64,000 nt of DNA from Candidatus Multivorans azotirespirans (GCA_027493095.1 JAPVXD010000198.1:30253-94252); one strand, 5' to 3'. Shown: positions 4,503 to 18,000, counted from the first letter of the stretch. Program-made: numbers and translations. Notes: generated by a model not told the origin, from the letters alone.

Positions 4503-4892
4503 TCAGCGAATCGGGCGAATCTCGACCCCAGGCAGGTTCAGCTTCAGCCAGGCCCGGTCAGCCGTGAGCGCAGGAAGACCGTGCGCGGTTGCCGTGGCGA
4601 GACACGCTCGGTCACCGAGCCCCAGGCCTGCCGCGGCTGTTGCAGGGCGAAGCGCCCCGCTGCGGAGTGCCATGTCAGAGTCGAAGGGCAGGATGTCGAC
4701 TCCGAGCGTGGCGAGAGAGTAGGCCACGGCGGGCTGTGACCATCCCTCATGGGTGAGTCGTGCAGCGACCTCTTCCACGTTGACAGCGGACATCGCTGCG
4801 CCGTCGGATAGGGCGCTGAACACCACCTCCGCCCCTGGTTCGCTCTGGATCAGCGCCAGCAGCGCCGACGCGTCCAGAAGAGAGCTAGCCAC
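4503..4892 (-). CDS. vapC: PIN-domain toxin (VapC family)
   Basis: N-terminal LLDASALLAL, plus later acidic residues (NVEEV, GDRACLATA) typical of PIN. The GTG start at 4892 overlaps the upstream antitoxin stop (GTGGCTAG). Confidence 0.75.
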   Translation of the reverse strand: MASSLLDASALLALIQSEPGAEVVFSALSDGAAMSAVNVEEVAARLTHEGWSQPAVAYSLATLGVDILPFDSDMALRSGALRPATAAAGLGLGDRACLATATAHGLPALTADRAWLKLNLPGVEIRPIR

Positions 4893-5178
4893 CGAACTCC
4901 TTCCGAGCCTCAGCCCGGCGCTCGGCGATGAAGGCATCAACCTCGCCGCCCTTGCCGCCGCCGTACTTCCTGGCCAGGGCCTGGACCTTTGCCACAGCGG
5001 CGTCCAGCGCAGCCTCCGCCGTGGTCATCTTGATCGAGTCGCCCTCGAGTGTCAGGACCACCTCCTGGCGTGGCTGGAATCGTAGTGCGGCACGGAAGGG
5101 TGCTGGTACCACGAGCCGGCCGGCTGCGTCCACGACGGTTGATACGGACTCGACGGTTGGTTCCGCGTGTTGTGCCAT
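4885..5178 (-). CDS. vapB: AbrB/MazE/SpoVT-family antitoxin (VapB-like)
   Basis: 97 aa. The GRLVVPAPFRAALRF...VVLTLEGDSIKM segment looks like a swapped-hairpin AbrB fold. It sits directly upstream of, and overlaps, the PIN gene. Confidence 0.75.
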   Translation of the reverse strand: MAQHAEPTVESVSTVVDAAGRLVVPAPFRAALRFQPRQEVVLTLEGDSIKMTTAEAALDAAVAKVQALARKYGGGKGGEVDAFIAERRAEARKEFGG

Positions 5179-5190
5179 AGGGCACGCACT

Positions 5191-5216
5191 CTACCATGAA
5201 GACAAGAGCATGGTAG
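5191..5216. promoter_or_regulatory. Perfect 8-bp inverted repeat (CTACCATG-N10-CATGGTAG) just upstream of vapB; candidate antitoxin operator
   Basis: Read directly: ctaccatg at 5191-5198 and catggtag at 5209-5216, 13 nt from the vapB ATG. A TAGAGT -10-like hexamer on the minus strand overlaps the proximal arm. Confidence 0.35.
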
Positions 5217-5270: not shown

Positions 5271-5948
5271 TCAGCCGCTGAGCATCTTCTCCCTGCGCTC
5301 GGCGCGGGTGAACGTGAGGGCGACGATCGCCGCGATCGCGAGGGCGGTGCCGATGCGATTCTGAACGTTCAGCGCGAGCATCTGCGCCGCGTCCGCCTCT
5401 TCCACGGCGAGCGGGTTCCAGAACGGTGAGACGCGGAACGAACCGAACAGCCGGTTGAGGCCGAGGACGCCGATCGTGGCGAGGGAGCCGGCCACGTCGC
5501 TGCGGAACAGGGTCGCGAAGCCCATGGCGGCAACGAGGTAGAAGACGACTCCCTGCGTCGCGCCGTACAGGCCCTGGAGAATCGGGAATTCCGTGAAGAA
5601 GGCATAAGTCACGCCGGCGAGGAGGACCAGGCTGACCAGGAGCATCAGGATCGCGGCGGCGAGCTTGCCGAGCCAGACCCGATGGGCGCCTCCGGGAACG
5701 GTGTAGGCAATCTCGAGGCTGTGCTGATCGAGTTCGCCTGTGATGATCCGGCCGCCCAGGAAGATCGCGAGCACGGCTACCGGTACGCCGATCAGGCTGT
5801 TCTGCGCCGCCGCCGGCTCCAGGGCAGGTCGCATGCCGGCTACCAGCATGAGGGCCTGTACTACGAGCCACACCAGCGGCAGCAAGGGCAGCAGCCAGTA
5901 CCGGCGTCCGCCAAGCAACACCGCCGAGGTGCGAAGCAGCGTGATCAT
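5271..5948 (-). CDS. ABC-2 type transporter permease (about 6 TM)
   Basis: 225-aa polytopic membrane protein. Its ATG overlaps the stop of the upstream NBD-containing ORF (ATGA at 5945-5948). Confidence 0.75.
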   Translation of the reverse strand: MITLLRTSAVLLGGRRYWLLPLLPLVWLVVQALMLVAGMRPALEPAAAQNSLIGVPVAVLAIFLGGRIITGELDQHSLEIAYTVPGGAHRVWLGKLAAAILMLLVSLVLLAGVTYAFFTEFPILQGLYGATQGVVFYLVAAMGFATLFRSDVAGSLATIGVLGLNRLFGSFRVSPFWNPLAVEEADAAQMLALNVQNRIGTALAIAAIVALTFTRAERREKMLSG

Positions 5949-8900
5949 GCCGGCGCCTCAGTACGCACCGCGCGCGCGAGCCACAGGTAACCGTCCTCCA
6001 GCGTAGGCTCGGCGGGGGCGGCCCGCTCGTCCGGGCGGCCGGCGGCGAGTACGCGAAGGCTGCTCGTGCCGTCCGGTTCGGGCTTCTGGTCTGCCAGCAC
6101 GGCGCCCTCGGGCAGCTCGGGCACTTCTTCTTCGCCCGCCGTCCGCCACGACCACACTCTGCCCTCGGCTTCGCGCGACAACGCGGCCGGGTGGCCGTCG
6201 AAGACCATTCGACCGCGGCTCAACACAAGGACGCGATCGCACGCTACCGCCACGTCTTCGACGACGTGGGTCGAGAAGAGCACGATCCGGTCCTTCGCGA
6301 GCCGTGAGAGCAGGTTACGGAAGCGGACCCGCTCGCGGGGGTCGAGGCCGACGGTCGGTTCGTCGACGACGATGATCGGAGGCAACCGGAGCAGCGTGCG
6401 CGCCACCGCAACGCGCTGTCGCATTCCACCCGAGTAGCCGCCGATCTGCTCGTCGGCGCGCTCGTCGAGCCCGACCTCACGCAGCAGCGTCGAAATGCGT
6501 TCGGCCCGTTCCGACGTGTCGATCTGGTAGAGGGCGGCGTAGTACTCGAGGTACTGGCGGGCGGTCAGCCGGGGCGGCAGGCCGGCGTCCTGGGGCAGGT
6601 AGCCGACGTAGCGCGCGAGGCGCGTTCGGACGCTGAGCAACGGAACGCCGCCGAGCGTGATCCGGCCCCGCGTCGAGTCGAGGATTCCAGTCAACTGCCT
6701 GAGCAGCGTCGTCTTGCCGGCGCCGTTCGGGCCGAGCACTCCGACCATGCCGCGTTCGGCCTCGAAGCTCACCGCGGCCAGGGCCTTGACGGTGTCGATC
6801 GGCAGGTCCAGACCGAACACCTTCGTTGCCGCGGCGCGCCAGAGGCGAAGGAGCTGACCACGCCAGCCCCTTGCGCGTCGTCGCCGGGAGGTCCGCTGTT
6901 CCCGGCGCATCGTCTCGAGCCGCGCCGTGCGGCGTCCGAGCTGAACCAGCAGAATGACCGTGGAGACGATGGCCAGCGCGATGAACCCTGCGACTTCAGG
7001 ATCGGCGACCATCTCCGGAACGACCAGCCAGGCGAGAAGCGCCCAGGACAGCAGGGCCGTCAGCACGCCCTCGACGCCGCCCGGTTTCACGCGCCCGAGC
7101 TCGTCGGCGTGGCCCCGGGCGCGTCGGATCTCACGCAGCAGCCGGGAACCGATCAGCAGGATGGCGATCAGGACTCCGAGGATGATCAGGCCGCCGGTCA
7201 TCCGCGCCGCCAGGGCGACGGCGCCGGCGAACAGGAGCAGGAGAGGCAGCAGCCGGTCACGGGCGTCGGCCGGCTCAAAGGCCCGGCCGCCCTGGGCGGC
7301 GACCCGCCTGGCGAAGTCGGCGGTAGCCCGCAGCGCCCGGCGCACCGGGCCGGGGAGGCCGTACGTCTTGCGCAGGTGGCGGACGACGAGCTTTGGTGGG
7401 CCGGCGGCCGTTTCCGGCTCGGGCGACGGCGGCTTCGGCAGCAGCCACACGGTGAGGCCGAGCAGCGCTCCGGCGATCAGCACCGTGGTCGTGATCTGCC
7501 AGAACATCGACTCGATCACGCCGAACGCGAACAGAGGCGCGGTCGTCGCGATGACGGCGCCGAGCCAGGTCAGCACGACCCAGGGGCCGACGCGGCTGAA
7601 CAGTTCGTCGAGGCGTCGCAGGAAGACGAAGCCGACCGGGATGACGAGCAACGTCAGCAGGGTCGCGGTCAGCAGGCCACCGATCACGAGCGTCGCAAAG
7701 GGCGGCCAGATCTCGTTCTCGCGCCCGGTCGCGATGGACAGGGGCGCCAGCGCCGCGACCGTCGTGGCGGACGTCATCAGGACCGGGCGCGCTCGCTCGC
7801 GGACGGCGGCGAGGGCGGCCGCGCCGGCGCTCCAGCCGGCGCCCAGCGTGTGCTGCTGCATTCGGTCGACGAGCAGGACGGCCGGGTTGATCGCCAACCC
7901 GAGCAGAACCAGTGCTCCGAGCAGAGCCATCGCCTCGAAGCCGATGCCGGTCAGGACCAGGGCCCAGACCGAGCCGAGCAGCGCGAGGGGAAGGGCGATC
8001 AGGACGAGGATTGGCAGCGTCATCGACTCGAACGTCACCGCCAGGACGAGGAAGACCAGAAGAACGACCGGCACCACGATGCGCCGGAACCAGTTCGTGC
8101 TCTCCCCGGAGCGGTCGAGCGCGATGGTCGTGCCCGCGGGCCGGTGGATGCTGGCGATCGCCTCGTCCAGGCTCCGGTCGAAGGCGTCGCGCGCCGGGCC
8201 CCGCCGCGGCACGTCCGGCGACAGGGTGTAGAAGACCTCCCGTTCGCGGACGCCGTTGTGGTGGGTGATGACCGGGGAAGGCGGCGCCTGCCGCACCTGC
8301 GCCAGGGCGGCGACCGGCAGGACTCCGGCCCCGGTCGAGACGCGGAGCCGCTGCAGCCCGCTGAGCGACACGTCGCGGTCGAGGCTGCTGTCGTTCGGGG
8401 GCTCGGCCTCGTCGCGCCGCTCCTCCGACCGTTGGACGACGATCGGCAACTCCCGCCCGCTGTCAAGCGGATAGCCGGTGTTGATCCTGGTCCCTTCGCG
8501 TCCGGCCAGATTCAGCATCGGCAGTACCTCGTCCAGGAGCACGCCGAACGTGTCGAAGGCGCGCCGGTTCGGACTCACGTGGAGTTCGTCGGGCCCTGGG
8601 CGTACCGCCGGATAGGCGCCTGCGATGCCCTCGATCTCCCGTAAACGCTCGGTGACCTGGGCCGCGAGGTCCGTCAACTGTTCGTTGTCGTTGCCGGAAA
8701 GGACGACCCGGGATGGGCCGCCGCCGAGCAGTTCCTGGGCGCCGCCGCCTCTGCCGCCTCCGCCGCCTCCACGTCCTCCCGGGCCTTCGCCCTCGCCCGG
8801 ATTGAGGAGTTCGGCGCCGGCGCGCCGGGCCGGGGGACGCAGCAGCTGCCGTACGCGTCTGGCCGTCAGCCCCTCAGGTCGCTCGTCTTCCTCCACCAGG

Positions 8901-10762
8901 TGGACGGTGAGCGATCCTCCCTCTTCCCGGATCATGCTCTCGACGCGGTCGACGCCCTCGACTTCCTGAATCGTCTCGAGACGTTCAAAGACGCGGACGG
9001 CGGAGTCGAGGCTTCCGCGGCCCTCGGGCAGGCGGACGGAGAGTTGGACCTGATCGGCGATAGGCGCCTGGCCCGGTCCGCTCGAAGCGACCAGGAACAG
9101 GGCGGCGATGACGCTCAGGACGACGGCCGTGACGACACCCGTGATCCAGCTCGCCGGCCGGCGCAGGGCGGAGGCAAGCACGCCCGCGAACAGAATCCGC
9201 GTGGGGTCGGGCGGCACCAGTCCGCCGAAGCGTTCGCGGCGTTGACGCAGCTTGGTCAACCGTCGAATCGCGGCCGGTGCCGCGAGATGCCGCGCCAGCA
9301 GGGGCACCAGTCCGATCGCCACCAGGAGGGAGCCGAACAGCGGCAGCAGGATGGCCAGCGACAGGAGCGCGATCAGGTTCTGGATCAGGGACGACTCCAG
9401 GTCGACGATGACGGCGGGCAGGAAGACGATCGCCGTCGTTACGGAAGCGGCGACGATGGCGCGGCCCGTACGCCGGATGCCCCCGGCCGCGGCGTCGTCG
9501 GGACTCCTGCCGCGTTCCAGACGGCGCTGGACGGACTCGAACACGACGACGCTGTTGTCCACGATGAGTCCGACGCCGATGGCCAGCCCGAAGAGCGTGA
9601 ACAGGTTGAGCGACAGACCGGCCACGTAGAGGAAGGAGAGAGCCACCGCCAGACTGACCGGCACGGCGACCGCGACCACGGCAACCGCGCGCCACTGGCG
9701 GAGGAAGAGGAACAGGACCAGGAGCGCGATTCCGAAACCCGAGAGACCGAGGTTCCGCAGTCGGTCGATCTGCGTTTCGACCAGGTCGGCGGCGTCGAAG
9801 CTCGGGAGCAGGCGGATGCCGAGGGGAGTGAACTCCTCGTTGATCTCATCGATCCGGCGGCGCAGATCGCGACCGAGCCGCACCAGATTGGCGCCTTCCT
9901 CCTGGAACACCATGACGCCGACCGACGGCTCGCCGTTGACCCGGTACAGCATCTGACGGCGGCCCGAGCCGATCTCGACGTCGGCCACGTGGCGAACCAG
10001 GACGGGAAGGTCGGGGACCACCCGGACCTCGCCCATCGACACCGGGCCGGCTGGCCGGCCGTCGAGCATCACCGCCGTCCGCCCTGCCTCGTCCTCCAGG
10101 CTGCCGAGGTAGCGGAGGCGTCCCGCCGCACCGCGCACCGCCGCGGTCACCTGCTCCGTCGTCACGCCGAGCGCGGCACAGCGGTTCGGGTCGACCCACA
10201 CGGTCAGCTGGCGCGAGGCGCCGCCGCCCAGCATCGCCTGGCTGACCCCCGGCACCGCGGCCAGCCGGGGCGTGATCATCTCGTCGACCAGATCGTACAG
10301 TGCATCCTCGTCGTCGGAACCGGTCACCTGCAGGATCATGGCGAAGCTCGAGAAGACACTGGTGTCGTCGGCCTGCACGTCCAGGAAGGCGTCTCGCGGC
10401 TGTGTCCGTGCGAGATCGGCGGCGATGCGGCGCATCTCGAGTTCGCGCACCTTGAGATCGACGCCGCGCTCGAAGCGGACGGTGAAGCTGCCGGCGGCGC
10501 CGCTGACCTCGCCCCAGGTCTCGGCTACCCGGGGCAGTGTCCGGACCCGGGCTTCGAGCGGCATCAGAATCTCCCGCTCGATCGTCTCCGGTTCGCTGCC
10601 CGGGCGGAAGAAACTGACGTAGAGCGAGTCGCCCGTGAGGGCAGGGAACAGTTCGACGGGAAGTCTCTGCCAGGCGAACCCGCCGAGCATGACGAGTGCG
10701 ACGAAGAACATCGTCACCGCCACCGGGCGGCGGATGGCGAGCGTGTCGAGACCGGCTTTCAC
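5945..10762 (-). CDS. RND efflux permease (AcrB-like, about aa 1-1056) fused via 2 extra TM helices to an ABC ATP-binding domain carrying an internal 4-TM-like insertion (aa about 1057-1605)
   Basis: Single uninterrupted 1605-aa ORF.
- N-terminal part has RND hallmarks: AIRRPVAVTMFFVALVMLGG, GLAIGVGLIVDNSVVVFESV, RARPVLMTSATTV.
- C-terminal part has Walker A GPNGAGKTT (6707-6733), signature YSGGM (6422-6436), Walker B IIVVDEP (6356-6376) and H-loop FSTHVV. Confidence 0.85.
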   Translation of the reverse strand: MKAGLDTLAIRRPVAVTMFFVALVMLGGFAWQRLPVELFPALTGDSLYVSFFRPGSEPETIEREILMPLEARVRTLPRVAETWGEVSGAAGSFTVRFERGVDLKVRELEMRRIAADLARTQPRDAFLDVQADDTSVFSSFAMILQVTGSDDEDALYDLVDEMITPRLAAVPGVSQAMLGGGASRQLTVWVDPNRCAALGVTTEQVTAAVRGAAGRLRYLGSLEDEAGRTAVMLDGRPAGPVSMGEVRVVPDLPVLVRHVADVEIGSGRRQMLYRVNGEPSVGVMVFQEEGANLVRLGRDLRRRIDEINEEFTPLGIRLLPSFDAADLVETQIDRLRNLGLSGFGIALLVLFLFLRQWRAVAVVAVAVPVSLAVALSFLYVAGLSLNLFTLFGLAIGVGLIVDNSVVVFESVQRRLERGRSPDDAAAGGIRRTGRAIVAASVTTAIVFLPAVIVDLESSLIQNLIALLSLAILLPLFGSLLVAIGLVPLLARHLAAPAAIRRLTKLRQRRERFGGLVPPDPTRILFAGVLASALRRPASWITGVVTAVVLSVIAALFLVASSGPGQAPIADQVQLSVRLPEGRGSLDSAVRVFERLETIQEVEGVDRVESMIREEGGSLTVHLVEEDERPEGLTARRVRQLLRPPARRAGAELLNPGEGEGPGGRGGGGGGRGGGAQELLGGGPSRVVLSGNDNEQLTDLAAQVTERLREIEGIAGAYPAVRPGPDELHVSPNRRAFDTFGVLLDEVLPMLNLAGREGTRINTGYPLDSGRELPIVVQRSEERRDEAEPPNDSSLDRDVSLSGLQRLRVSTGAGVLPVAALAQVRQAPPSPVITHHNGVREREVFYTLSPDVPRRGPARDAFDRSLDEAIASIHRPAGTTIALDRSGESTNWFRRIVVPVVLLVFLVLAVTFESMTLPILVLIALPLALLGSVWALVLTGIGFEAMALLGALVLLGLAINPAVLLVDRMQQHTLGAGWSAGAAALAAVRERARPVLMTSATTVAALAPLSIATGRENEIWPPFATLVIGGLLTATLLTLLVIPVGFVFLRRLDELFSRVGPWVVLTWLGAVIATTAPLFAFGVIESMFWQITTTVLIAGALLGLTVWLLPKPPSPEPETAAGPPKLVVRHLRKTYGLPGPVRRALRATADFARRVAAQGGRAFEPADARDRLLPLLLLFAGAVALAARMTGGLIILGVLIAILLIGSRLLREIRRARGHADELGRVKPGGVEGVLTALLSWALLAWLVVPEMVADPEVAGFIALAIVSTVILLVQLGRRTARLETMRREQRTSRRRRARGWRGQLLRLWRAAATKVFGLDLPIDTVKALAAVSFEAERGMVGVLGPNGAGKTTLLRQLTGILDSTRGRITLGGVPLLSVRTRLARYVGYLPQDAGLPPRLTARQYLEYYAALYQIDTSERAERISTLLREVGLDERADEQIGGYSGGMRQRVAVARTLLRLPPIIVVDEPTVGLDPRERVRFRNLLSRLAKDRIVLFSTHVVEDVAVACDRVLVLSRGRMVFDGHPAALSREAEGRVWSWRTAGEEEVPELPEGAVLADQKPEPDGTSSLRVLAAGRPDERAAPAEPTLEDGYLWLARAVRTEAPA

Positions 10763-10775
10763 GGCGCGTTCCGGT

Positions 10776-13700
10776 TCAGGCGTCCGCGGTCCGCCGGCGG
10801 CGCCGGGTCAGCCTCAGCGAGTCGAGAATCAGGTACAGGCAGGGCAGCACGAGCAACGAGCCCACCGTCGAGGTCACGATGCCGCCGATGATCGTGTAGG
10901 CCATCGGGCTGCGCAGTTCGGCCGCCTCGCCGGCGCCGACCGCGAGCGGCAGAAGAACGAGCACCGTGGTGAGCGTCGTCATCAGGATCGGCCGTAGCCG
11001 GATCGCGGCGGCCCGGGCCAGGGCGGCTCGCCGCTCGATGCCCGCGGCCATCAGCCGCCGCGCCGTGGCGATCAGGAGGACGGCGTCGTTCACTGCGACA
11101 CCCGCGAGCACGATCAGCCCGAGCAGGGCCATCACGCCGACCGGCCTGCCCATCGGCCCCAGCGTGCAGGCGACGCCGAGCAGGGCGAGGGGGATCGAGA
11201 ACAGCACGGTGAGCGGTTGCAGGAGGGACTCGAACGTTCCGGCGAGCACCATCAGGACGAGAACGATGGCCAGGATGCCCGCGAGTCGCAGTTCGGAGGT
11301 GGCGCGCAGACGTTCCTCCTCTTCGCCGGCCAGGCGCACGATCAGGCCGGGGGGAAGCTCTGTCGCCGAGATCGCGTCGTTCGCCGCGGCGATGGCACGT
11401 GGATAGTCGCTGCCCTCGGCGATTCTGGCGGTCACCTGCGCCACCCGCCGCTGGTCACGACGAAAGACCTCGCGCGCTCCCTCAGTCGGCACGAAGCGCG
11501 CGACCTGGCCGAGGACGAGATCGGCTCCGGCGCTGCTCGTGAAGCGCAGTCCGGCGAGCTCCTCGGGCCGGGGTTGGGGCAGGGAGAGAACGACGTGGCG
11601 TTCCTCGTCGCCGACCGACAGGAGCGTGACCCTGCGGCCGTCGAGCGCGGACTGGAGCACGCGGGCGATCGTCTCGAGATCGACCCCCAGGCCGTCGGCC
11701 ATCGCCCGGTCGAGTTCGATCCGCAGTTCGGGCGGGCCGCCCTCGAAGGACGAACGCACGTTCCAGAGTTCGCCATGGCCGGCAAGCGCGTCGCGGAGGC
11801 TGGTTGCCGCGGCCCGCAGATCGGGGAGCGACTGACCGGCGATCTCGACCACGATGGGCGGCCCGGACGAGCCCAGGGCTTCGGCGAGCGCCGAGGTTCC
11901 GACCTCCCATTCGATCTGGGTGTCGGGCAGATCGGTGAAGTTCGGAGACAGCGCGCCCACGAGCTGGCTGCCGGTGGGACCCTCGGCTGACAGGCGTACC
12001 AGGAGCCGGGCGGTGTTCTCCTCGGTCAGTTCAGTCGTGACCAGCCGGTCGTCCTCCGGCAGCCGCCCGACCTCGGCCTGAATCGCTTCGAGGTGCTCGC
12101 CGGCGGCCTGACGCACCGCCTCTTCGAGCGTGGATACCGCGGCCGCGGTCGCTTCGACGCGTTGGCCCGGTGGCCCGACCATGCGCACCGAGAACTGTCG
12201 CGGGTCGGCCGGCGGAAGGAGTTCGCTGCCCAGACCGAGCAGGACGTTCACCGCGGCCGCGGCGGCGAGCACGGCGGCGCCGACGACGAGCCAGCGCAGG
12301 CGGAGGAGGAACAGGACGAGTCGCTCCAGCGCACCGAAGGCCCAGCCGAGGGGACGCGCCTCGCTGTCGTCCGGATCGGCCGGCGGCGTGACGTCGGCAG
12401 CGTGTTCCGCCTCTGCGACCCCGGCCGCCGGTCTGGCCCGCGGCAGGAACCAGCGCGACAGGGCCGGAATCAGCATCAGCGCGACGGCGAGCGACGCGGC
12501 CAGCGAGGCGGTGACGGTGAAGGCGATGCCCTCGATCAGGCGTGCGGCCAGTCCCTGCACGAAGAGGACGGGCAGGAAGACGACGCAGGTGGTCAGCGTC
12601 GAGGCGGCGATCGCCCCGGCGACTTCGCCGGTACCGCGGGCGGAGCTCTCAGCCGCCGAAGCGCCGGGACGGTGGCGCCGGTGGATGCTCTCGACGACGA
12701 CGATCGCGTTGTCCACCAGCATGCCGGCGCCGAGTGCCAGTCCGGCCAGGGTGATGATGTTGAGCGAATGGTCCCAGAGCCGCATCGCGAACAGGGCGAC
12801 GAAGAGGGAGACGGGCACGGCGGAAGCGACGACCACGGTCGGACCGAGCGAGCGCAGGAACAGGGCCAGGACGACGACGGCCAGGGCGATGCCGACCAGG
12901 GCCGCGTTCTGCAGGTCGGCCATCGCATCCTCGACCAGGGCGGCGTCGTCGTTGACCATCGACACCTGGACGCGGGGCAGGTCGAGTTCGAGGTTCTCGA
13001 GCGCCGCGCGAACGGTCCGCGAGACCTCGACCGTGTTCGCGCCGGCCTCCTTGAACACCTGCAGGCCGACGCCCTCCTGGCCGTCGACTCGTACCAGGTG
13101 GTCGATCTCCCCGTGGACGACTTCGACCTCGGCGACGTCGGAAACGCGGATGGGCTGGCGGACCTGCTCGCCGCCCGACCCCGCCTGGGTGCGGTAGCGG
13201 ATGACGACTCGCTCCACGTCCCGCGGGTTGCGGAAACGGGAGATGCCGCGGACCAGGAAGACCTGGCCGCGATCCTCCAGGGTGCCGGCGTCGATGTCGA
13301 CGTTCTCGGCCACCAGGCGCTGCTCCAGTTGGCTCAAGGTCACGCCGAACGCCTGCAGGCGGTAGCGGTCGACCCGCACGCGGACCTCCAGGTCGCGGCC
13401 ACCTAGAACGCGCACCTCGGCGACGTCGGCGAGCTGCTCCATCGCCGGCGCCACCTGGCGTCGTGCCAGGCGCCGGAGTTCGGCGAGATCGGGGCCGCCC
13501 GGTTCGGAGGCCAGCCCCAGGGTCATGACCGGCGACTGCCTCGGGTCGAGCTGGCGGACCAGGACCTCGTCGACTTCGGGGTCGGCCGCGACCGGGTTGA
13601 TCGCCTTTTGGACTTCGATCAGCGCCAGGTCCATGTCGGCTTCCCAGTCGAAACGCACGGTGGCGATCAGCCGGCCGGTCCGGGCGACCTGCTGTACTTC

Positions 13701-13958
13701 GCGGATGCCGCGCACGGTGAAGAGGCGCTGTTCGACCTGTTCGCCGTAGAGCCGCTCCATCTCCGTCGGGGGCCGGTCGCCGGATCGCACCGCAACCACG
13801 ATCGTCGGCGAGCGCAGGTCGGGGAGAAGGTCGATCGGCAGTTCGCGCCACGACATCCAGCCCACGAGGGCGAACGCCAGCGCGGTGACCGTGACCGCTA
13901 CCGGTCGGCGGGCGGCGAGGCGGGCCGGGCCGGAACCTCCACCGGGAGCAGCGATCAC
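10776..13958 (-). CDS. RND efflux permease (AcrB/AcrD/AcrF family)
   Basis: 1060 aa. RND hallmarks: RRPVAVTVTALAFALVGW, GLALGAGMLVDNAIVVVESI, IRLRPILMTTLTTVL. GGGAGG RBS lies 10 nt upstream of the GTG at 13958. Confidence 0.9.
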   Translation of the reverse strand: MIAAPGGGSGPARLAARRPVAVTVTALAFALVGWMSWRELPIDLLPDLRSPTIVVAVRSGDRPPTEMERLYGEQVEQRLFTVRGIREVQQVARTGRLIATVRFDWEADMDLALIEVQKAINPVAADPEVDEVLVRQLDPRQSPVMTLGLASEPGGPDLAELRRLARRQVAPAMEQLADVAEVRVLGGRDLEVRVRVDRYRLQAFGVTLSQLEQRLVAENVDIDAGTLEDRGQVFLVRGISRFRNPRDVERVVIRYRTQAGSGGEQVRQPIRVSDVAEVEVVHGEIDHLVRVDGQEGVGLQVFKEAGANTVEVSRTVRAALENLELDLPRVQVSMVNDDAALVEDAMADLQNAALVGIALAVVVLALFLRSLGPTVVVASAVPVSLFVALFAMRLWDHSLNIITLAGLALGAGMLVDNAIVVVESIHRRHRPGASAAESSARGTGEVAGAIAASTLTTCVVFLPVLFVQGLAARLIEGIAFTVTASLAASLAVALMLIPALSRWFLPRARPAAGVAEAEHAADVTPPADPDDSEARPLGWAFGALERLVLFLLRLRWLVVGAAVLAAAAAVNVLLGLGSELLPPADPRQFSVRMVGPPGQRVEATAAAVSTLEEAVRQAAGEHLEAIQAEVGRLPEDDRLVTTELTEENTARLLVRLSAEGPTGSQLVGALSPNFTDLPDTQIEWEVGTSALAEALGSSGPPIVVEIAGQSLPDLRAAATSLRDALAGHGELWNVRSSFEGGPPELRIELDRAMADGLGVDLETIARVLQSALDGRRVTLLSVGDEERHVVLSLPQPRPEELAGLRFTSSAGADLVLGQVARFVPTEGAREVFRRDQRRVAQVTARIAEGSDYPRAIAAANDAISATELPPGLIVRLAGEEEERLRATSELRLAGILAIVLVLMVLAGTFESLLQPLTVLFSIPLALLGVACTLGPMGRPVGVMALLGLIVLAGVAVNDAVLLIATARRLMAAGIERRAALARAAAIRLRPILMTTLTTVLVLLPLAVGAGEAAELRSPMAYTIIGGIVTSTVGSLLVLPCLYLILDSLRLTRRRRRTADA

Positions 13959-13985: not shown

Positions 13986-15059
13986 CTAGCCGGACACCCG
14001 GACGCGTGTGCCGTCGGTCAGGGTTTCGAGTCCGCGCACAACGATCCGCTCGCCGATCTCGAGCCCCTGGCGGACTTCCGCGATCTCGTCGTCGCCGAGA
14101 CCGAGCACCACCTCGCGCCGCACGGCACGCTGACCGTCGAGCACGAACACGACCCGCCGGCCGCCGCGCTCGGTGACCGCTTCGCGGGGGATGACGGGCA
14201 CGGCGTTCCGTTGTTCCACGACCAGGGTCACCTCGACGAACATGCCGGGCCGCAGCAGGCCTCCAGGATTGTTGATCGCCACTTCGGCGCGGAAGGTGTG
14301 GGTTGTCGGATCGACTTCGGGGGACAGGCGGACGACCGCACCCTCGAAGGTGATGTCTTCCCAGGCGAAGTGTCGGAGCCGTCCCTTCTGGCCGGGGTGG
14401 ACCCGTGCGAGTTCCGGGCCCACAAGGTCGATGTCGGCCACGAGAGAGTCAACCGGGGCGATCCGCGCGACCTGGAACCCCGGCGACACGAGCTGGCCGT
14501 CCGCGATCGGCATGCCGCTCGTGTCGCGGGCAAGCTCCATCAGCACGCCCCCGATCGGGGTCAGCATTCTGGCGCGGTCTTCCGTCAGCAGGCTCTGCTC
14601 CCAGGTCGCCTTGGCGTCTTCGAGCGCGGTCTCGGCCCGGCGCAACTCCTCGGCGGCGATCAGTTCCTGCTGGAACAGCCGGGCGCGGGCGTCCCGCTCG
14701 GCGAGAGCGCCCTGGTAGGCCTGGTGCGTCGCCCCGACCCGGGCCGCGAGTCGCGCATCTTCGCCCGTGACTTCCGCGATCATCTGGTCGGGGACCACGC
14801 GATCGCCCTCGGCGAGCCGACTGCCGTTGTTGTTCCGCCCGATCTGGAGCCGACCCGGTGTCTCGACCTGGAGCACGATGCTCTCCGCGGCGCGCAGGGT
14901 GCCGGTGGCGACAATCAGGTCCTCCACATCGCCGGTCCGGACCTCGGCGGCGCTGACGGGGACCAGGAAGTCGACGGTGTCCGTGGTGCCTGCCGCGTCG
15001 CAACCCAGGACGAGCACGCAAGCGGCTGCCGCCGCGCCCAGCCACTGCCGCGCGCTCAC
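13986..15059 (-). CDS. Efflux periplasmic adaptor (membrane fusion protein, HlyD/AcrA family), lipoprotein
   Basis: Start trimmed to the GTG at 15059, which overlaps the upstream stop (GTGA). N-terminus VSARQWLGAAAAACVLVLGC has a lipobox. The rest shows the usual MFP layout: a coiled-coil hairpin region (AERDARARLFQQELIAAEELRRAETALEDAK), then lipoyl and beta-barrel regions. Confidence 0.85.
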   Translation of the reverse strand: MSARQWLGAAAAACVLVLGCDAAGTTDTVDFLVPVSAAEVRTGDVEDLIVATGTLRAAESIVLQVETPGRLQIGRNNNGSRLAEGDRVVPDQMIAEVTGEDARLAARVGATHQAYQGALAERDARARLFQQELIAAEELRRAETALEDAKATWEQSLLTEDRARMLTPIGGVLMELARDTSGMPIADGQLVSPGFQVARIAPVDSLVADIDLVGPELARVHPGQKGRLRHFAWEDITFEGAVVRLSPEVDPTTHTFRAEVAINNPGGLLRPGMFVEVTLVVEQRNAVPVIPREAVTERGGRRVVFVLDGQRAVRREVVLGLGDDEIAEVRQGLEIGERIVVRGLETLTDGTRVRVSG

Positions 15060-18000
15060 GGCGCCCCGCCTCCGCCGGTCGGGTCGGCGCCGGCGCCGTT
15101 GTCGAGGCGCACGAAGCGCACGGCGTCGGCAGCCACGACGTTGCCGGTCGTGTCGTTGCTCAGTTCGAGTTCCACTGTCCCCGGGGCGAGATCGAAGTCG
15201 CCCAGCACGGCCCAGCCGATGCCCGCTCCCTGGGCGTCGAAGTCGATGGGACGGGAGCTCCCGGCGTTTCTGAGTTCCAGGTCGTAGGTGCCGAGGTTCA
15301 GGCCGAAACTGACGTTGACCTGCACGCCGTCCCCGCCGTCGCGCGGGCGATCGCCTTCGTTTCCGATCCGCACTTCCCGCCTCACCTGGCCGCCGCCCGG
15401 CACCGGTGACAGGGAGGGTACGTGCATCTCCACCCGCCAGCGCCCGGCTTCGGGCAGTTGGGCAGTGTAGGTGGCGCGGCGGCCTCCGTCGCCCTGCGCG
15501 ATGAGCGCGGTGGTCCGGCGGTAGCGTCCCCAACTCGAAGGCTGTTCGTACCGGGACCAGTCAGCCGGAGTGCCGCCGAAGATCGAGTAGACGGGCAGGC
15601 CCTGGTCGGTTTCGAGCGTGGGGGCGAAGATGCCGGCAAGGCCGCCCTGGAGCCGCATGCCGTTCGCCTCGGCTTCGTCCGTTTCGACCGAGAAGCCGGG
15701 ATCCAGGTCGTCGACCACGATGGTGCCGGCGCCGCCATCGAGGAACGCCGGCGTCCAGTCGGCCGGCCGGACGCCGCGGAGCGGTTCACTGTCCGAGATC
15801 GCCTCGTCGTCGAGCCGGGGCAACTCGATGGAGAACTCACGGCGGTTCAGGGACAGGTACGGGGATGCGAGCATGGTCCCCGGCGGTCGGGACGTGACGA
15901 GTCCGAACTCGACCGTCGTGTGCCCGGGGATGAGGACCGGCTCGCTCGAGTCCCAGCGCGCGCCGCCGGGGGCACGGACGGCGTAGCGGAGCCGGAACAG
16001 GCCGGGCGCCGCCTCGCCGTTGCGGACGAACAGCCGGGTCTGGTACTGCGGCCCGCCCTGGTCGTCGTCCGGCAGGCGTTCCAGCTGCGCCGGGGAAACG
16101 AGGAAACCCGGCAGGTCCGTCTGGTGCAGGAAGTCGCCGACGAGACCGGGCAGATCGACACCCGCTTCCTCGGCGGCGCTGTGAAGATCGGCGGCGGTGA
16201 AGGTCGAACCCCGATGATCGCGCAGCAGGTTGGCGATCATCGCGGCGGTGCGCTCCCGCCCGGCGCCGTCGAGTATCGCCGTGGCCAGGGCGGAAGTCTT
16301 GAGGTAGAGCGCGTTCACGGCTTGCTTCGGGTTCTCCTCCACGTCCATGTCGGTCAGGGAGCTGCTGAGAACCGCGTCCCAGACACCGGGTCGGTCCGTG
16401 AGGGCCTTGACGATGCCACTGGCGGCCGAGCCGCCGCCGGCCGCGAACTGGCCGGTGAACCCCCCCTGCATCACGTTCGCCATCGTCCAGCCGAACTCGC
16501 GGTCGAACAGGTGAGCGGAGAAGTACGACTCGCCGCCGTTCACCAACTGGTTCACCAGGTTGTGGCACAGCGCTTCCAGCGCCAGGGCCTCCGGGCCTCG
16601 TGCGCCGGTCTGATACAGGAAGACATTGCGGATGCCGCCGGCCTCCAGGTTGCCGCCGGAGTAGTCGAGGCGGAAGAACTGCTGGAGCCCGTTCGCTTTC
16701 GCCCTGGGCAACCCGCCTTCCTCGTCCTCGAACCGCTCCGGATTGCGGAACCGGAACTCGAAGCGTGCGGTCGGCAGGCTGCTCTCGCTGATCAGCAGCA
16801 TGCCGGGCGGGGCGCGCTCGGTGTCCATTCGCCAGCCGCCGCCGTAGGAACGGAGCGTCCAGGGGACCTCGACGAGGCTGAACTGCCTGTAGGGATAGGG
16901 CATCCCCAGTTCGCGGGCGGTGGCGAAGCGGTCGGCGGCGACCTTCTCGATTTCGGCCCGGGCGTCGGCGAAGAAGTCCAGGTTGCGCAGGTGGTTCGGG
17001 TGGAACAGGAGTTCGACTTCGACTCCTTCGACCTGTGTCGTCCGGCGGTCGAATCTGCCCGCGACCAGCATGACCTCAGGCACCGGGCCGGCGGGCGCGA
17101 ATCGCTGGCTTTCGCCCGTGAGCTCGGCCATGCCCGGTCCCGCGACCGTCCAGCCGGAAGGGGTTCTGACCTCGAGGTCAAGCTCGAAGAAGTCCCGCGA
17201 GCGCCGTCGCGGGTCATCGGCGCCGACGGACGCGCCCGGACGTGGGAGCCACGCGAGAGATGCGGGGAGCGCGACGTGGCCGCGTTCGACGGAACCGCTC
17301 AGGCTGCCGAGCATGACGATCTGCGCGTCCTGCCACTCGCCGGTGTTGTAGTCGATCGCCGAATCCAGATAGGCGAAGCGGAGGTCGGGCCGTCCGCTCG
17401 CGCGCACCCGGATCCCGGTGACCTGGCCTGCCGGTGGCGTCGAGCCGAGGTGGACGTCGAGCAAACCGTTCTCGTGTTCGAAGTCGAGCGCCTCACCGGC
17501 AGCGTTCCAGACGCCCTCCACCCGCAGGCCTGGATTCAGGCTGAACATGGCTCCGGAACCGGTCGCGGGCAGGAAGTGGACTTCGAGGTCGAGGGCGAGC
17601 CGCCCGCCTCGTTCGATGCCGACCGAGCCCCGGATCGTCTGAAGGTCGACGATCGCTTCGGCACGCCGTTCCTCGTGTGCGGCGCGCCAGGCGTCCCTTT
17701 CGGCGATCTGGTTGCCGCTCCACGTGATCGCCGTGAAGATGAGGACGGCGCCGGCGGCCAGGCCCGCGCCGCCGGCAACCCCCCACAGGCGGCGCTTCGC
17801 GTCGTCGAGACGGGGGTGGATGGCGACCGCGGTGGCCAGCAGGCCCGCCGCGAGCAGGGCGAAGCTGCCCCGGTTCACGAAGTTGAAAGCGGTCCAGATC
17901 TGGGGCGCGACTTCCGAGATGTTGCTGATGAAGCCGCCGTTCAGGGCAAGCGGCGGCAGGAGGTAGACCGGGATTCTGAACGTCAGGAAGGTGCTGCCGG

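Follow-up and report, generated by a model that had tools for sequence, protein, structure and literature searches.

Resistance-nodulation-division (RND) pumps are powered by an ion gradient and ATP-binding cassette (ABC) pumps by ATP, and the two classes are treated as separate solutions to the problem of efflux. Here we analyze a gene in which the two are joined. In a 64,000-nucleotide stretch of Candidatus Multivorans azotirespirans (GCA_027493095.1 JAPVXD010000198.1:30253-94252; the whole of this stretch is hereafter the window), a single open reading frame (ORF) at positions 5945-10762 of the minus strand encodes a complete RND permease that continues into an ABC nucleotide-binding domain (NBD).

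Among the described systems, several resemble this locus in part. In MdtABC-type systems, two adjacent RND paralogues are encoded with one adaptor and form an MdtB2C heterotrimer. The window cluster likewise has an adaptor gene followed by two paralogous RND genes; unlike in MdtABC, however, the second paralogue bears six extra transmembrane (TM) helices and an ABC ATPase, and the two paralogues, 31% identical to each other, both have Asn/Asn for the D408/K940 pair. With the type V exporters (NosDFY, Wzm-Wzt, PmtCD, DrrAB, GldAFG, ABCG/ABCA), the locus shares the NBD subfamily including its C-terminal domain, the 6-TM fold of the partner permease, and the gene order, in which the ATPase comes before the permease and their stop and start codons overlap, whereas the fused NBD, unlike that of these exporters, is the C-terminus of an RND protein and has its first strand (β1) cut off by a 4-TM insertion. 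We know of no described type V system that is tethered to a secondary transporter.

MacAB-TolC, similarly, combines an ABC ATPase with a periplasmic adaptor in envelope-spanning efflux, and mechanotransmission is a plausible analogy; MacB, however, is a type VII protein with an FtsX-like 4-TM domain and a periplasmic domain, whereas the fusion has a full RND protein instead. The Escherichia coli systems YbhGFSR and RbbA-YhhJ-YhiI are ABC-2 exporters encoded with a membrane fusion protein (MFP); as in the window, the genes for the ABC-2 ATPase and permease lie in one operon with that for an HlyD-family adaptor, but, unlike the window cluster, they have no RND component or RND fusion. Finally, in two-step efflux, single-component inner-membrane pumps cooperate functionally with AcrAB-TolC, and, to our knowledge, cooperation of inner-membrane pumps with RND systems has so far been inferred only genetically. 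The logic proposed here for the fusion is similar, with one transporter delivering to the periplasm or outer leaflet and the RND pump removing the substrate from there; unlike in two-step efflux with separate proteins, the two steps would be hard-wired in one polypeptide.

The initial annotation of the window, made from the sequence, had presented a covalent RND-ABC coupling as something not seen described before. This impression stands, in that our search of the full-text literature (with subscription-only journals, TCDB and the InterPro architecture tables outside its scope) found no description of such a fusion. Databases list these proteins under generic names ('hypothetical protein', 'ATP-binding cassette domain-containing protein', 'efflux RND transporter permease subunit'). 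While each of the two building blocks is well known, this does not hold for their covalent joining, for the NBD split by a membrane insertion or for the conserved operon.

The fusion gene and its parts are located as follows.

5945..10762, minus strand: RND::ABC fusion gene, 1605 amino acids (aa); translated ORF with both Pfam domains and intact orthologues.
7595..10762, minus strand: RND permease module, residues 1-1056, with 12 TM helices and two periplasmic loops; ACR_tran match and PDB alignment.
7442..7585, minus strand: TM13 (residues 1060-1079) and TM14 (1086-1107), bringing the chain back to the cytoplasm; hydropathy and AlphaFold2.
7358..7393, minus strand: putative displaced NBD strand β1 with the A-loop, KLVVRHLRKTYG (residues 1124-1135); conservation, AlphaFold2 and splicing.
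6794..7348, minus strand: insertion in the NBD, residues 1139-1323; hydropathy, positive-inside pattern and AlphaFold2.
6143..6793, minus strand: ABC NBD core, residues 1324-1540; ABC_tran, NCBIfam, conservation and Foldseek.
5948..6142, minus strand: β-rich C-terminal domain of the NBD, residues 1541-1605, ending in TLEDGYLWL; AlphaFold2 strands and alignment to TM_1403/NosF.

The ORF consists of 1605 codons with no internal stop, as stated in the initial annotation, and starts with a GTG located 13 nucleotides (nt) past the stop codon of the preceding gene. Pfam identifies both ACR_tran (E = 1e-144) and ABC_tran (E = 3e-27, residues 1330-1470), such that a full RND permease and a canonical ABC ATPase indeed lie on one polypeptide. 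The genome is ~70% GC, and long shadow ORFs are common there; the fusion ORF is not one of these because the domain matches span its full length and the orthologues are conserved. Judged from the sequence, this ORF is far beyond chance.

Homologues of the fusion were found in many assemblies. Among the best 120 homologues of the C-terminal 601 aa, more than 60 carry both PF00873 and PF00005, with identities down to ~45%; these matches are fragments, none above ~1007 aa, longer proteins apparently being outside that database. Where named, their sources are Holophagales, Thermoanaerobaculia, Polarisedimenticolaceae, other Acidobacteriota and Gammaproteobacteria, and the family can be aligned from the junction through the hydrophobic linker to the ABC domain. 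In eight full-length orthologues (1528-1612 aa), the linker follows a complete RND protein. The intact orthologues are those of locus L002 (1612 aa; a Pseudomonadales metagenome-assembled genome from station ALOHA), of loci L083-86 (1589 aa, a version that is present on two nearly closed contigs of 3.7 and 4.6 Mb), and the proteins P0123, P0125, P0127, P0131, P0138 and P0142 (1528-1601 aa); an intact version of 1568 aa is encoded on a contig of Acidobacteriota UBA4820 and one of 1601 aa in a Logan assembly.

When the linker alone (residues 1050-1335) was searched exhaustively with phmmer against 1.84 billion representatives, 33 proteins matched. Wherever a match is long enough to tell, RND sequence precedes the linker, which is placed near residue 1030 in the proteins of 1270-1601 aa. 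MAV27084.1 (a Gammaproteobacterium, 'hypothetical protein') belongs to a cluster of 26, in which at least 13 proteins share a length of 1597 aa and derive from separate NCBI, ENA and Logan assemblies. A scan of a genome collection with the C-terminal alignment detected at least two true relatives (L002 and L005). Two proteins, P0043 and P0114, were considered as natural stand-alone NBDs and dropped, given that they come from 2x and 6x long-read contigs in which the gene calls overlap or are gapped; these apparent split forms look like the result of frameshift errors.

These data bear on the possibility of an assembly or sequencing artefact, whereby an indel or a lost stop codon would have merged two genes in this contig only. 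Long ORFs come easily at 70% GC and some database homologues look split, as an artefact would predict; however, the same in-frame junction recurs in dozens of independent short-read and long-read assemblies from several genera, the split forms are confined to the two low-coverage contigs described above, and the linker is conserved at the protein level. An artefact thus appears exceedingly improbable, and this explanation is effectively refuted, in agreement with the original view that an accidental read-through was unlikely. By the same comparisons, the family is rare but real and extends over two phyla, with intact orthologues in both, namely in Acidobacteriota (Holophagales, Thermoanaerobaculia, UBA4820) and Gammaproteobacteria (OM182, Pseudomonadales), and with uncultured marine or sponge-type Acidobacteriota and OM182-type Gammaproteobacteria as carriers, and the fusion is a genuine protein that, judging from its conservation, is selectively maintained.

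The RND module shows the 12-TM architecture with two large periplasmic loops by Pfam, PDB alignment and hydropathy. The solved RND chain 8f3e_A aligns with residues 9-1052 of the fusion in a single stretch, and the L002 orthologue covers positions 7-1020 of the 1021 in the ACR_tran model, likewise in a single stretch. The best equivalog-level NCBIfam matches for both RND proteins of the window are MdtC and MdtB, at scores far below the cut-offs. A Gly-rich insert, GEGEGPGGRGGGGGGRGGG (fusion residues 656-674; window ~8740-8797), is located in the periplasmic domain of the fused RND protein, and the homologue P0072 has a similar Gly run.

The residues of the proton relay were read from an alignment to E. 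coli AcrB taken from NC_000913. In the fused module, D402 corresponds to AcrB D407 (TM4) and R990 to R971 (TM11), whereas N403 is found in place of D408 and N959 in place of K940 (TM10), i.e. the HAE-1 relay (D407/D408, K940, R971) is incomplete. The D407 and R971 equivalents are invariant in 15/15 RND sequences, fused and unfused; K940 is replaced by Asn in all 15, and D408 is replaced by Asn as well, except in the fusion of L005, which has Ser. The relay segments of the fusion are at window positions 9551-9568 and 7880-7897, and the unfused paralogue encoded next to it (RND1, 10776-13958) shows the same change. All five top solved homologues of the relay segment with printed alignments keep DD/K. 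In TM10, the fused modules with a long linker have 'NPA', RND1 of the window and of L002 has 'NDA', and RND1 of L005 has 'NNA'. The D408/K940 ion pair has thus become an uncharged polar pair, in what looks like a clade with a non-canonical proton relay.

The loss of this pair, which these five solved homologues retain, as well as the 'NPA' of the fused TM10 as opposed to the 'NDA' of the window and L002 RND1, would fit an RND cycle driven or gated by ATP. Under this alternative, NBD dimerisation would be passed via TM13-18 and/or the small permease encoded downstream to the transmembrane domain (TMD) of the RND protein, replacing or gating the proton cycle by mechanotransmission as in MacB, LolCDE and NosDFY. 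However, the invariance of the D407 and R971 equivalents in the fused module is hard to explain without ion coupling, and the unfused RND1 has the same D408N/K940N change, which is therefore a trait of the clade and not a consequence of the fusion; RND1 of L005 likewise has no Asp in TM10. Because the Asp and Arg are invariant and the unfused RND1 shows the same pattern, the fused RND module is probably still ion-driven.

The ABC ATPase has a complete set of motifs, and the positions initially reported for them are exact: Walker A GPNGAGKT (residues 1344-1351, nt 6710-6733), YSGGM (1443-1447, nt 6422-6436), Walker B IIVVDEP (1463-1469, nt 6356-6376; catalytic E1468) and the H-loop FSTHV (1496-1500), along with the Q-loop and the D-loop. 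Across 73 sequences, there is no variation at the Walker A Lys, the Q-loop Gln, SGG, the Walker B Asp-Glu or the H-loop His; the fused ATPase is thus under selection, as far as conservation can tell, and is predicted to be catalytically intact. The best NCBIfam models are GldA (E = 5e-50), DrrA (E = 3e-48) and NodI, with RbbA also among the matches; all these scores are below the equivalog cut-offs, and accordingly they assign a subfamily and no named orthologue. Foldseek matches are TM_1403 (4yer), NosF (7osf_B) and LptB. Together with the C-terminal domain, which is common to the fused NBD and the free ATPase of the same cluster (PTLEEGYL in the latter), these similarities place the fused NBD in the ABC-2 (type V) exporter subfamily DrrA/GldA/NodI/NosF. 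No match to FtsX or MacB_PCD was found by Pfam in the fusion or in the small permease, in contrast to what characterizes the type VII protein MacB. Both the invariance of the ATPase motifs and the presence of NosF, the NBD of a mechanotransducing ABC-2 system, among the closest structures would also fit an ATP-gated RND pump.

A hydropathy scan shows six hydrophobic helices after TM12 of the RND module, i.e. 18 TM helices overall. The initial annotation had described two helices at nt 7394-7594; these exist, as TM13 and TM14, but the total of extra helices has to be amended to six. The internally consistent topology that had been proposed holds, the chain being returned to the cytoplasm after TM13-TM14, and every cytoplasmic turn of the extra helices is marked by Arg/Lys-rich loops. 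We modeled fusion residues 1050-1605 with AlphaFold2, using 73 homologues as input (mean predicted local distance difference test score, pLDDT, 90.8; predicted template modelling score, pTM, 0.83). The order of elements in the model is TM13, TM14, a β-strand, an amphipathic helix, TM15-TM18, a helix, the NBD and the β-rich C-terminal domain. The helices at TM13 and TM14 have pLDDT >90, and W1088 is invariant.

The β-strand of the model, ten residues at 1125-1134 (model positions 76-85), has a pLDDT of 93-97, and K1132, Y1134, G1135 and G1138 around it are invariant in nine full-length proteins; within the KLVVRHLRKTYG segment, K, Y, G and P do not vary among the homologues. On the contiguous domain, the NCBIfam NBD models begin to match only at model positions 14-19; when the KLVVRHLRKTYG segment is spliced to residue 1324, the GldA, LptB, PhnC and ECF models reach positions 2-5 instead of 15-19, with a gain of 1.4-2.3 bits. 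This strand accordingly looks like β1 of the NBD with the A-loop tyrosine, and we infer its pairing with β2. Because KLVVRHLRKTYG would be the displaced β1, the NBD appears to be split in the β1-β2 turn by ~185 residues (an amphipathic helix, the four helices TM15-18 at residues 1164-1288, and an Arg-rich helix): in place of the contiguous fold of ABC ATPases, β1 is at 1124-1135 and β2 at ~1325. The model suggests that the TM bundle and the NBD form one unit through the β1-β2 turn and not through the usual TMD-coupling groove. TM13-18 were also considered as a degenerate ABC-2 TMD, and this was dropped: a comparison with the small-permease profile (hhalign) gave a probability of 0.35%, i.e. 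no detectable ABC-2 relation.

The insertion is kept in all orthologues with a long linker and is absent from the L005 lineage. In L005 (an uncultured bacterium), a 1437-aa fusion with the same NBD subfamily has an RND protein without extra TM helices and a soluble insert of ~45 residues at the same β1-β2 turn. Thus, the RND-NBD link is the common denominator and the six helices are a lineage-specific elaboration, since L005 links RND to NBD without them. Around this fusion, a 922-aa protein with an ABC-2-like N-terminus (weak match, E = 0.018) is encoded before it (L005 4175-6943) and an outer-membrane factor (OEP) gene directly after it (11703-13370); no small permease is present downstream of the L005 fusion.

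The linker can be read in two ways. The covalent link and a conserved membrane-embedded linker are in keeping with an ATP-gated RND pump, whereas L005-type fusions have no TM linker for the transmission of force. A further explanation is co-assembly only, i.e. two independent transporters were fused for co-localisation or equal expression, with neither substrate hand-off nor energetic coupling. The genes of both systems adjoin in a conserved operon, where loss of a stop codon would easily fuse them; moreover, there are two different linker designs, and the linker is the least conserved part, with 18-46% identity vs 58-70% for the NBD. With L083 left out as belonging to the lineage of the window itself, identity to the window protein ranges by region from 58 to 70% in the NBD, from 38 to 53% in the RND module, from 35 to 53% in the β1 region and from 25 to 46% in the extra helices. 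However, the fusion persists in two phyla at linker identities down to ~33%, with no natural split form found, and the linker, with its six TM helices and invariant residues, makes up an elaborate, maintained structure together with the split NBD. Furthermore, the fusion and the small permease stay together even in a locus without the other genes of the operon. We therefore doubt that the fusion reflects co-assembly alone.

The gene downstream of the fusion encodes the candidate partner of the NBD.

5271..5948, minus strand: small type V (ABC-2) permease, 225 aa; stop/start overlap, homologues and AlphaFold2.

Its start codon overlaps the stop codon of the fusion (ATGA), and the 4-nt overlap is present in 6/6 loci checked, among which the small permeases are orthologous (30-75% identity). 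For the 225-aa protein, at least 877 homologues were found, many with the PF12679 tag, and the orthologue in L089 exceeds the Pfam cut-off for ABC2_membrane_2. The protein has the type V TMD fold, i.e. an N-terminal interfacial helix and six TM helices; its AlphaFold2 model has a pLDDT of 77. From the stop/start overlaps in 6/6 loci and the strict co-occurrence, we infer a complex between the NBD and this permease; a dedicated type V permease in all six loci, being the conventional partner of such an NBD, argues against an ATP-gated RND pump. In L089, the fusion and the small permease are found alone, with no adaptor, outer-membrane factor or second RND gene nearby, and because this locus carries just that pair, it defines what we take as the minimal unit.

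In two closely related closed genomes, four tandem paralogues of the small permease (230, 230, 230 and 228 aa) follow the fusion (L083 6711-10687, L085 8416-12392). These are 66-75% identical to the single copy of the window and may be alternative specificity subunits for one NBD. Directly downstream of the window's operon, there is a PIN-domain gene (4503-4940, minus strand), the start of which is overlapped by 4 nt by an 86-aa ORF (4937-5197, minus strand) with no Pfam match. The two may represent a VapBC-like toxin-antitoxin pair and occupy the spot where relatives carry extra permease copies.

Taken together, these data lead us to read the fusion as the keystone of an exporter that combines ABC and RND parts. 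The arrangement to which we give about even credence is an ABC-2 exporter module that is permanently tethered to an RND pump and hands its substrate over to it. The fused NBD, which its own helices keep at the membrane, would pair with the translationally coupled small type V permease to yield an ATP-driven exporter or flippase, which would take up an amphipathic or lipid-like substrate in the cytoplasm or at the inner leaflet and deliver it to the periplasm or outer leaflet. RND pumps load from the periplasmic or outer-leaflet side, and the covalently attached RND module would capture the substrate there and, probably driven by protons, expel it via the adaptor and an outer-membrane channel encoded elsewhere. 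This is suggestive of a drug or lipid exporter that draws on both cellular energy sources in one machine. The initial annotation had a proton-motive-force pump covalently coupled to an ATPase; the fusion itself is real, but an ABC exporter module tethered to the RND protein is the more likely meaning of it. AcrB-type RND pumps are trimers, whereas NBDs act as dimers; speculatively, the ABC dimer would obtain exactly its two NBDs from an MdtB2C-like heterotrimer in which one RND1 is joined by two fusions.

Several points weigh against a tethered exporter of this kind. The trimeric RND and dimeric NBD do not match in number, and the 1:2 heterotrimer is not a general remedy because L089 has neither RND1 nor an adaptor nearby. 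No outer-membrane factor gene is present in the operon of the window. Both RND paralogues are without the D408/K940 pair that the five solved homologues mentioned above keep, and proton coupling of the RND module is assumed. TM13-18 show no relation to ABC-2 permeases in the profile comparison, and the L005 lineage is devoid of them. An ATP-driven or ATP-gated RND pump is nevertheless unlikely given the evidence cited above, and the broader notion of a dual-energy or ATP-powered RND protein, in which the NBD dimer drives or gates the cycle through the linker and the small permease, is quite unlikely as well; if true, this would be the first case of a primary energy source being coupled to an RND transporter.

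The genes upstream of the fusion belong to the same cluster.

10776..13958, minus strand: RND1, unfused paralogue, 1060 aa; 31% identity to the fused RND module.
13986..15059, minus strand: periplasmic adaptor (MFP), a lipoprotein; HlyD_D23, RND_mfp TIGR01730 (E = 2.5e-46).
15056..18589, minus strand: large ABC-2 permease, 1177 aa; NosY/GldF-like N-terminus and Golvesin_C end.
18586..19572, minus strand: free ABC ATPase, 328 aa; 37% identical paralogue of the fused NBD.

The order of free ATPase, giant permease, adaptor, RND1, fusion and small permease is the same in the window, L001 and L090; the contig of L002 begins inside the giant permease, and the last five genes of the cluster are visible there. 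In most loci, the fusion is accompanied by the adaptor, the second RND paralogue, the free ATPase and the giant permease. RND1 is kept upstream of the fusion in L001, L002, L083-86, L088 and L090, and the free ATPase in L001 and L090. The giant permease is 1134-1177 aa long across the window, L001 and L090, with its C-terminal end also seen in L002; ~880 extracytoplasmic residues of this protein match no family. For the adaptor, the longest ORF (13986-15533) overlaps the preceding gene by ~480 nt and has 158 Arg/Pro-rich residues at the N-terminus; the true start is likely the GTG near 15059, followed by the lipobox LVLGC.

Beyond the free ATPase, a 498-aa ORF (19774-21270, minus strand) was considered as an outer-membrane factor and dropped, since its sequence is implausible and has no Pfam match; the ORF is probably an antisense shadow of a plus-strand gene. 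The plus-strand ORF (19789-21267) gives weak matches to cytochrome c, Cu2_monoox_C and EF-hand, suggestive of a divergently transcribed redox protein. A scan for promoters and terminators returned counts at the background level and was uninformative.

That this covalent fusion is conserved is Rosetta-stone evidence for the ability of the RND and ABC classes to work as one machine, and the split of an ABC domain by four inserted membrane helices is an unusual variation on a highly conserved fold. The two-gene minimal form offers a compact system in which to ask whether there is a direct hand-off from ABC to RND, whether ATP gates the RND cycle, and how a dimeric engine is reconciled with a normally trimeric pump. 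Because the carriers are uncultured Acidobacteriota of marine or sponge-type niches and OM182-type Gammaproteobacteria, the fusion system may matter for the export of lipids or natural products in these niches.

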